Below are positions 18,229-19,572 of a stretch of 64,000 bases of DNA, in pieces. The stretch's first letter is position 1; each line of letters begins with the position of its first letter. The notes below the pieces were generated by a model. The model searched no databases and was not told the DNA's origin. It worked only from the letters and a program-made list of their open reading frames with translations. The translations under genes were made by a program, and so were the position numbers. The stretch is from Haplodiscus bocki. Taxonomy: Eukaryota. The stretch is taken from assembly GCA_965655095.1 (NCBI GenBank), contig OZ296653.1, forward strand, positions 36,394,001 through 36,458,000, written 5' to 3'.

Positions 18229-19572
18229 TGTCGCTTAACCCTCTTGCGCCAGCTTTCCTCCCGCGTCATCAATCTTCCTCTGACCCACCTCTTTCATTGT
18301 GCAACTCTAATACCATGAATCTTCCTCTGGCTCAATTAATTTGCGGGATGCCTCCACAAATTACTCCTTCTCATGCTTCTTCTATCAACCAACACATTGC
18401 TGACAAAACTCTCCTCCTTCCTCTTCTCCAACCGATAAATCAGTATACGAAGGACGCAGCCGCTCATAAACCAACTCCCGGATCCTCAACACACTCGCCC
18501 TCATCACTCCACCACCAGATGAAATGTCTCCAGGCAATTAACGATTGCATCCAGCAGTTTAACCAACACTTGAAGGCAGAGAAACTAGACAGACAAATTT
18601 TACAGCTCGTTGTCCTTCAATTGCAAAATGACTTTGCTGTATTGCGCTACTTGCTCTTCTCCCCGACTGGGACAATCCCCAACAAGGATGTTACCGTTAA
18701 AGACGCTGCTACTAGTCCTTTAGTTGATACTACCGCTAACCCTAACCCTAATGCTAACCCTAACCCTAACCCTAACCCTAACCCTAACCCTAGCCCTCAC
18801 TCTGCTTCTTCTGCTTTTCGCTTCCCGGTCCTAGAGCCCCCACACTTCGTCGTTCTACCCCGGTGGGCGCTGTGGGGACAGCCAAAACAAAAACAAACAA
18901 TACTGCACACACCGATTCCCAACCCATACCCAACACGCAAGAAACTACGATACAGAACCTCACATCAAGAATTTTCAAATTGTAAAAACTGTTTGCCAAT
19001 GAAGTATCAACGTACACATCAATCACTGCAGGGGTCCATTCTCAATACTTTTTATTATACGATAAAATTCGCCAGCTTGAACCTGGCAACTCAGATGTTA
19101 TTATTTGGAAAATCCCCTCAGTGAAGTTTGTCTTCGACTATGCAAAGGTGGCCCGACCATCATCAGATCCACTCATCGAGCCAGCTACAAGTTTTAGCAG
19201 CCCCATTTTCAGGACCCACCCGCATGGCTAAAATTTCTTCATCAAACTCTACCCGTATGGTATCGGACCCGCTACGGGTAAGTGTGCTTCGGTTCTATTC
19301 GCACTCTTCCCAGGAGACTATGACAATCTTCTCCAATGGCCCTTCACAAAGACCATTCATATCGGTATTCGAGACCAGCTGGACCCAATGAATACTTGGA
19401 TGAAGACAATCCTACCCGACCAAGACCCAGCTTACAAGAAGCCAACAATGTCAACAAAAACTGGAGTTGCAACAATCCTAATCAATAACTTTATTCCCCA
19501 CTCCAAACTCTTTAACGAAACTGAAGGTTTTAACCTCACACCCAAACTTCCCTCCTTTTTTCTTTTCCATAG
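18228..19572 (+). pseudogene. PAM2 motif, coiled coil, NP repeat, TRAF-type MATH domain accessory gene (frameshift ~18840, stops at ~18982 and 19229, probable deletion near 19531)
   Basis: Starts MSLNPLAPAFLP; later frame reads IRQLEPGNSDVIIWKIPS..FSSPIFRTHPHG*NFFIKLYPYGIGPATGKCASVLFALFPGDYDNLLQWPF..IRDQ..FIPHSKL..EGF, canonical TRAF-C/MATH motifs. Confidence 0.85.
18736..18796 (+). repeat. Telomere-type (CCCTAA)n tract, ~10 units, encoding an NPNP repeat
   Basis: ctaaccctaaccctaatgctaaccctaaccctaaccctaaccctaaccctaaccctagccc. Confidence 0.9.

Follow-up and report, generated by a model that had tools for sequence, protein, structure and literature searches.

A RING-less TRAF gene, likely captured from a host TRAF, is carried by an env-bearing Ty3/Gypsy element family of Haplodiscus bocki

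A Ty3/Gypsy element in the genome of Haplodiscus bocki carries, directly before its 3' LTR, a gene encoding TRAF coiled coils and a TRAF-C/MATH domain, and this gene is very probably a working accessory gene of the element family. The element lies in the window, i.e. the whole stretch of 64,000 nucleotides analysed here. The original prediction for 18940..19572 was of a captured TRAF coiled coil and MATH domain without RING or zinc fingers, acting as a dominant-negative immune decoy. The observation of a TRAF coiled coil and MATH domain is confirmed and the interpretation is partly supported. The explanation developed here, taken as a whole, is that a captured RING-less TRAF kept under purifying selection is translated by re-initiation behind an upstream frame (ORF X) and jams or redirects host TRAF complexes; its chances of being right and of being wrong are judged about equal.

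The element is about 19-20 kb long and has the order gag-pol-env, with the TRAF gene last. The features other than the TRAF gene are as follows.

2068..4482, + strand: 5' LTR, TATCGC...GCGACA, with the same ends in other family-A copies
4486..4502, + strand: primer-binding site
4913..5254, + strand: small leader ORF of 113 aa, one of a small-ORF family by cross-matches
5271..6710, + strand: gag (PF03732, E 1.9e-6)
6668..12208, + strand: pol (protease, spacer, Macro, RT, RNase H, integrase), with four in-frame stops in this copy
14375..14758, + strand: small accessory ORF of 127 aa (shared pN/pS 0.09, N5/S16, 11 copies)
15102..15116, + strand: ATG, then a consensus splice donor ahead of env (donor in 9/10 family-A and 10/10 family-B stretches)
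15316..17580, ends approximate, + strand: env, a Monjiviricetes-type fusion glycoprotein, broken in the window copy
17605..18228, + strand: ORF X, 207 aa, without its own ATG, starting at a splice-acceptor consensus (shared pN/pS 0.14)
19601..19613, + strand: purine-rich tract before the 3' LTR
19614..21343, + strand: 3' LTR, a direct repeat of the 5' LTR, cut by an assembly gap (N, 21344-21543)

The marks of a Ty3/Gypsy element are all present, namely LTRs, a primer site, a purine tract and a short target duplication, and pol has the Ty3/Gypsy order PR-RT-RH-IN with Pfam matches over cut-off to PF13650, PF01661, PF00078, PF17919, PF17921 and PF00665. Target duplications of 4 bp flank 5/6 family-A copies (one mismatch in the sixth), 2/3 of family D, 2/2 of family E and 1/1 of family F. 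The two LTRs of the window element are 98.8% identical over 1730 columns, and in six other family-A copies with both ends the LTR pairs are 98.8-100% alike. A tRNA pattern search for the priming tRNA found 0. As in env-carrying gypsy elements, the third ORF encodes a viral fusion protein; env matches PF24664 (E 7.6e-12 and 1.4e-13), is class III-type and has a shared pN/pS of 0.02-0.03. The env of a relative has a hydrophobic segment close to the C-terminus, and a search of solved structures by env sequence gave no match. The small ORF at 14375..14758 is under purifying selection. In the window copy pol and env are broken as well as the TRAF gene.

Several smaller features of the element were noted. 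ORFs of 110-160 aa (4913-5254, 14375-14758, and one in L154) stand in the leader and before env and cross-match among families, with no Pfam match over cut-off; two ORFs of 73-83 aa that precede them match one another and family B. The Macro domain (7592-8023) lies between protease and RT in families A, B, D and F, and precedes the protease in family E (L234-L239), at the end of gag in one stretch; it is possibly a second counter-defence module. The leader contains a 43-bp tandem duplication (4672-4757). At 2027-2067, 41 bases that normally precede the 3' LTR stand before the 5' LTR with no further element sequence upstream; by sequence they are perhaps the remnant of a tandem copy.

The TRAF gene encodes about 460 aa from an ATG at 18228 and is laid out as follows.

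18228..18263, + strand: PAM2-like motif, TRAF residues 1-12, fitting XXLXXXAXXFXP (PF07145 14.7 bits, below its cut-off of 20)
18516..18680, + strand: first coiled coil, homologous to that of the host TRAF (helix 92-145 in the model)
18736..18797, + strand: CTAACC hexamer array encoding Asn-Pro repeats of the linker, its length differing between copies
18947..19090, + strand: second coiled coil (TRAF-N), with a stop at 18983-18985 and a frameshift just upstream near 18818
19100..19531, + strand: TRAF-C/MATH domain, with a stop at 19229-19231 and the last strand lost by a deletion of about 55 bases

The hexamer array resembles the animal telomere repeat. The start at 18940 given originally proved too far downstream, since the gene begins at 18228 and has the additional coiled coil from 18516. 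The motifs quoted in that prediction do share one + frame, from IIWK at 19100 to about 19531, and this frame is indeed interrupted by stops, one at the bracketed position of the quoted reading (19229-19231) and another in the heptad stretch (18983-18985). The proposed profile check gave PF21355 (TRAF-mep_MATH) on 19232-19627 with E 4e-11 and 43.8 bits against a cut-off of 27.4, and an artefact or chance match was rejected. The heptad segment ahead of MATH was also recovered; it begins at about 18947 and corresponds to one predicted helix, residues 232-279, in a natural open-frame copy, which PF21355 matches with E 3.3e-17.

The window copy is dead and cannot have been the protein source that was envisaged for it. 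It carries the frameshift near 18818, two stops and a deletion of about 55 bases near 19527-19532 that takes away the last MATH strand. Among 29 other copies, picked by MATH DNA, 17 have an open frame of 493-523 codons, stop to stop, with a whole terminal MATH. One natural open-frame copy was modelled from a 59-row alignment (mean pLDDT 59, pTM 0.38), and the model predicts disorder at 1-90, a helix at 92-145, a disordered linker, the TRAF-N helix at 232-279 (pLDDT about 57-86 by block) directly before MATH, and a sandwich at 286-443. The TRAF-N coiled coil is homologous to the host coiled coil by sequence alignment. Foldseek against solved structures gave TRAF1, TRAF5 and TRAF4 as best matches (E 4.6e-13 to 1e-12). 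RING and TRAF zinc fingers gave no Pfam match up to E 10 in the A, B, D or C proteins. Of the TRAF family traits, TRAF-C/MATH and TRAF-N are thus present by sequence and model, and RING, which TRAF1 lacks as well, and zinc fingers were not found. Two unusual arrangements were seen: in L144, X and the TRAF gene are fused into a single 657-aa frame, and in two family-B derivatives (L037, L052) a common deletion joins the env N-terminus in frame to the inner part of MATH.

The gene is multi-copy, not confined to this locus. First-look genome searches returned 1276 candidates by MATH DNA, 1126 by X DNA, 2967 by PF21355 and 4111 by the env family, which are candidates and not copy numbers, 40-150 being scored per search. 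Four related families carry the TRAF gene in the same place: A (the window's own), B (436 aa), D (about 250 aa) and F, which is known from one copy. RT core identity to the window is 92% for B, 80-81% for D and 58-60% for E. Family E is likewise multi-copy and has env and X, with no MATH before the LTR in 3/3 copies. A, D and F have a common primer site and E uses another. Family C consists of database proteins (P0180-P0184; 325 aa, intronless type, one cluster of 104 members), for which the best match in the Haplodiscus bocki genome, at 42%, was not close. A search of IMG/VR found no relatives. All 30 family-A copies picked by X DNA and all 15 family-D copies picked by env have the TRAF gene, its frame being open in 12/30 and 15/15 of them, respectively. 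Of the 30 best PF21355 matches inspected, 26 are element copies and 4 are host exons, and TRAF counts in the Haplodiscus bocki genome are inflated by retroelement copies. In family E (L204-L218, L234-L239), env moreover follows integrase directly, the LTRs are short (about 540 bp), the primer site is different and the X homologue is joined to a coiled-coil-like tail.

Selection on the TRAF gene was assessed by classing variants per codon column, with shared variants defined as those in 3 or more copies. The copies tested are the few dozen that scored best among more than a thousand candidates, and the pN/pS counts ignore transition bias and relatedness among copies. The neighbour-picked sets (30 A by X DNA, 15 D by env) avoid choosing on the TRAF gene, with some loci overlapping the MATH-picked sets. 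In family A, shared variants number N26/S52 (pN/pS 0.15) against N264/S118 (0.68) for singletons (Fisher p 6e-9); in family D, shared variants number N13/S66 (0.05) and singletons give 0.22. Neither in A nor in D does any stop recur in 3 or more copies, breaks being private to copies. In the sets chosen for their MATH similarity (38 A, 24 B and 20 D; L042 gave no match, and L037 and L052 were left out for low coverage), shared values were 0.19 (A), 0.14 (B) and 0.06 (D). Family-A singletons in the N-terminus and linker, outside the picking region, gave 0.86 and 1.00. The coiled coils are constrained to the same degree as MATH, at 0.10 and 0.10 in A (small counts) and 0.09 and 0.16 in B. In whole-element sets of 5-11 copies, where shared means 2 or more, values were 0.01-0.04 for RT, gag and env, 0.04-0.22 for X and 0.06-0.26 for the TRAF gene, which is thus under weaker selection than RT, gag or env. 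Between families MATH is 32-46% identical and four-fold sites are saturated (29/33, 14/20, 15/21). Since shared variants are mostly silent and singletons near neutral, the TRAF gene is constrained during replication and decays after insertion.

This pattern bears on two other views of the gene. It could be a neutral passenger, a host fragment hitchhiking between env and the LTR, and the frame is broken in 18/30 family-A copies, window copy included, with singletons near neutral. The breaks are private, however, the shared variants are depleted of amino-acid changes with no stop in 3 or more copies, and frames are open across saturated silent divergence, so that neutrality is very improbable. 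Even further from plausible is a host-domesticated decoy in which a short dominant-negative TRAF would come from the window copy itself: a coiled coil and most of MATH can indeed be recognised in 18940..19572, but the frameshift, two stops and last-strand deletion stand against it, as do the broken pol and env and the recent age of the element (LTRs 98.8% alike). The neutral passenger was rejected on the selection pattern and the functional window copy on its breaks. Of the two findings named originally as refuting the prediction, presence at this locus alone and neutral evolution in all copies, neither was borne out.

The TRAF gene was likely captured from a host TRAF mRNA, as judged from sequence comparison. 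Two host genes on contig 5 (L031, L032), located near 50.41 Mb and 9.06 Mb, each contain a large exon that encodes both coiled coils and most of MATH, and to which family B residues 66-398 align (28%, E 1.5e-40). The host exons end at a GT donor, the introns are 349 and 186 bases long, and an AG acceptor opens the last-strand exon. Element copies read straight through the site of this GT..AG intron, in agreement with the intronless state originally reported, and their lack of an intron that the host genes have is consistent with capture by way of an mRNA. A tree of the second coiled coil and MATH (28 rows, with two outgroup rows and no vertebrate TRAF) groups the element rows and 12 host-type rows at 100/100 against two other host MATH exons; ten of these 12 rows are database proteins labelled by likeness. 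Families A and B group at 100/100, and the tree leaves D and C unresolved against A+B, with a long-branch warning. The retro-capture proposed originally is thus upheld, as the gene lies within an LTR element, lacks the host intron and groups with one host TRAF clade. A single capture before the A/B/D split would be the simplest reading.

The absence of RING and zinc fingers stood up as an observation and is not supported as a sign of design. None was found for the donor in 18 near-length relatives, among longer proteins (a weak search) or in 38 kb upstream of the two host exons, which start at a splice acceptor, so that upstream exons exist. Because the donor clade likewise shows no RING or zinc finger, RING loss would be no sign of a decoy; the lack looks inherited rather than engineered, though not conclusively so.

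TRAF1-5 bind receptor tails via three hot spots, which for Px(Q/E)E and PxQxT tails are an Arg-x-Tyr pair, a serine triad and a hydrophobic pocket (PMC6125299). Receptor-face residues were mapped here by sequence alignment. The host clade keeps the Arg-x-Tyr pair and lacks the canonical serine triad; a basic residue (12/12 rows), an aromatic pocket residue (11/12) and a glycine (12/12) are near-invariant in it. All three are replaced in A and B, Arg by Lys (A) or Gln (B), with the pocket Phe and Gly changed, and family D keeps the Arg and Gly. The hot-spot set of TRAF1/2/3/5-type receptor binders is therefore not found in the alignment, and a decoy that competes for the same receptor tails, as first proposed, is doubtful, since these residues differ from the host clade in A and B. 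NF-kB as the target is not supported as stated, a weak search of the host genome for the Rel-homology domain, run without a positive control, having given 0 matches. The host does have a TNFR-like cysteine-rich repeat exon (C1), a zf-TRAF exon (C8) and an MLLE exon (C4) followed by HECT-like sequence (all in the L171-L173 set); the last we take to be UBR5.

Mammalian TRAF1, which is RING-less, uses its coiled coil to trimerise, assembles with TRAF2 into mixed trimers and regulates through TRAF2, negatively or positively (PMC4858697). The drifted groove, the equally constrained coiled coils and this precedent favour coiled-coil interference or a new partner over tail competition. The element TRAF would then jam or redirect host TRAF complexes, presumably by forming trimers with a host partner to a putative inhibitory or diverting effect, and the producing cell would keep making particles. 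Sequence and analogy lead us to propose tentatively, at somewhat under even chances, that host TRAF signalling is jammed, and likelier via the coiled coils than by tail competition. A complex prediction with two host-type TRAF chains and one element chain scored 0.66 versus 0.53 for the control and gives no answer either way.

An altered groove would also suit a new partner in an activating role, whereby the protein scaffolds host signalling for survival, proliferation or LTR transcription, or triggers death for release. The megalocytivirus protein ISKNV ORF111L binds TRADD and induces caspase-8 apoptosis (PMC3352826), TRAF1 can be a positive as well as a negative regulator (PMC4858697), and the donor may have been a RING-less yet active scaffold. 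ORF111L retains its RING domain, though, and the element gene has none, and a germline-integrating element would presumably gain little by killing its target cell; activation is considered unlikely. A similarly low probability is given to an adaptor on the RNA side, in which the PAM2-like motif would bind MLLE (poly(A)-binding protein or UBR5) and the TRAF part would provide a scaffold for multimerisation, either to aid translation or stability of element RNA or to link TRAF partners with the control of mRNA. In A, B and F the first 12 residues match the PAM2 consensus (XXLXXXAXXFXP; PMC6486636) despite differing downstream sequence. LNxxAxxFxP occurs in 75/82 of the A-like database proteins whose start could be read (120 examined) and in 20/25 (30 examined) and 20/22 (27 examined) genome copies, counts whose start patterns favour motif-bearing rows. 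The motif region is predicted to be disordered, like known PAM2 motifs, PF07145 is the sole match for the first 40 residues, and the host possesses the MLLE exon followed by HECT-like sequence. Nevertheless, PF07145 scores 14.7 bits where Pfam requires 20; the kinship of A, B and F makes this one gain, not three; and since D, C and the host genes lack the motif, it cannot explain why the gene was kept in the first place. Its presence in A, B and F but not in D or host genes suggests, at the level of sequence, a later link to poly(A)-binding protein.

The preferred reading, interference with host TRAF complexes, includes an expression route behind ORF X. This frame has a Pro/Ser-rich start, an Arg-rich stretch and a conserved small beta-barrel end, and is found in families A, B, D, E and F. 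Its model is a small beta barrel with weak SH3/Tudor-like matches only (Z at most 3.9); viral structures were searched with none under E 0.001, and sequence searches gave no match. An atlas lead (0.88) naming ORF X an ETS-domain protein was not borne out, the model being a small beta barrel, and a Rev- or Tat-like role is a guess. ORF X has no ATG in A and B, where it starts at a pyrimidine tract plus AG in 7/10 A and 10/10 B stretches, and a GTGAGT donor stands ahead of env in the same proportions as given for the window feature, in A immediately after an ATG. In family D the donor ahead of env was not seen and ORF X has an ATG. The post-env RNA is predicted to be spliced from the donor near 15110, ahead of env, to the acceptor near 17604 at the ORF X start. 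Stop-start overlaps can serve termination-reinitiation. The X stop and TRAF start overlap as TAATG in 11/11 A, window copy included, and as ATGA in 9/9 B with a readable start (of 10) and in 1/1 F, and the junction is TAAACATG in 7/7 D, which makes three geometries across families. Translation of the TRAF gene thus likely relies on stop-start re-initiation after ORF X.

Other systems with TRAF-C cargo have been described. In planarians, the gypsy elements Burro/GYPSM1 encode an env together with MATH_TRAF_C, BIR and BCL2-like domains, a cargo proposed to interfere with apoptosis and ubiquitination (PMC6431247). As described there, Burro is likewise a multi-copy gypsy LTR element with MATH_TRAF_C and an env resembling mononegavirus fusion proteins, and in Dugesia tigrina MATH has an accessory ORF to itself, as here; the Burro element exceeds 30 kb, with MATH, BIR, BCL2-like and env in or upstream of a giant gag-pol frame. 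The window element, in contrast, is about 19-20 kb long, has the order gag-pol-env with TRAF last, carries Macro in pol and has the donor gene in its own genome; no BIR or BCL2 match was found in it. Its host, with a genome of 1.50 Gb, has a COX1 that reads best in mitochondrial code 5, which marks it as an invertebrate other than a planarian, echinoderm, ascidian or cnidarian, unlike the planarian Burro hosts. Membership of Burro was rejected on layout, length and host, as set apart by the description of Burro.

The env-carrying Ty3/gypsy 'ancient errantiviruses' (HSV/gB-type) share gag-pol-env, LTRs, a tRNA primer site, a class III-type env and many young copies with the window element, which differs by several extra ORFs; term searches of the survey text and supplements gave no mention of a TRAF or MATH domain (PMC13524379). 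Among viral folds, the best matches of the element TRAF are iridovirus TRAFs (E 1e-11, 18-20% identity), and TRAF-like entries also occur among giant viruses in the viral structure search. ISKNV ORF111L is similarly a virus-borne TRAF from a host lineage, but it belongs to a DNA virus, has a RING domain and is pro-apoptotic by test (PMC3352826). Mammalian TRAF1 resembles the element protein in having a coiled coil and TRAF-C without RING, and its structure 5h10 is the top solved-structure match; this is likeness and not orthology, the tree having held no vertebrate TRAF. TRAF1 keeps the three receptor-binding hot spots (PMC4858697, PMC6125299), whereas the element clade does not. No description of the window element family was found in the literature searched, which lay outside most subscription journals and Repbase, and beside Burro and the fish iridoviruses the family is apparently an independent capture.

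Accessory genes for counter-defence are a mark of complex retroviruses, with hardly any documented for LTR elements of invertebrates. A more ambitious reading, which we consider rather doubtful, is that an invertebrate gypsy lineage arrived independently at the layout of a complex retrovirus, in which the post-env RNA is spliced and a captured TRAF, expressed by stop-start coupling, gained PAM2 and became an adaptor between TRAF signalling and poly(A)-binding protein. Taken with Burro, this reading would have env-bearing retroelements capture TRAF-C at least twice and would point to a TRAF-based cell defence against retroelements in invertebrates, possibly one outside NF-kB. Should the element TRAF target host TRAFs, it would name a retroelement-restricting pathway outside piRNA silencing. 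With donor gene, lost intron, gene-less sister family and selection in one genome, the capture is traceable and the function testable with one small protein.

Elsewhere in the window are a kinase exon (44267-44707, - strand), an RT fragment (52142-52534), a long inverted-repeat element (41017-42771) and a DDE_3 transposase remnant (56923-58211) between 54-bp inverted repeats.
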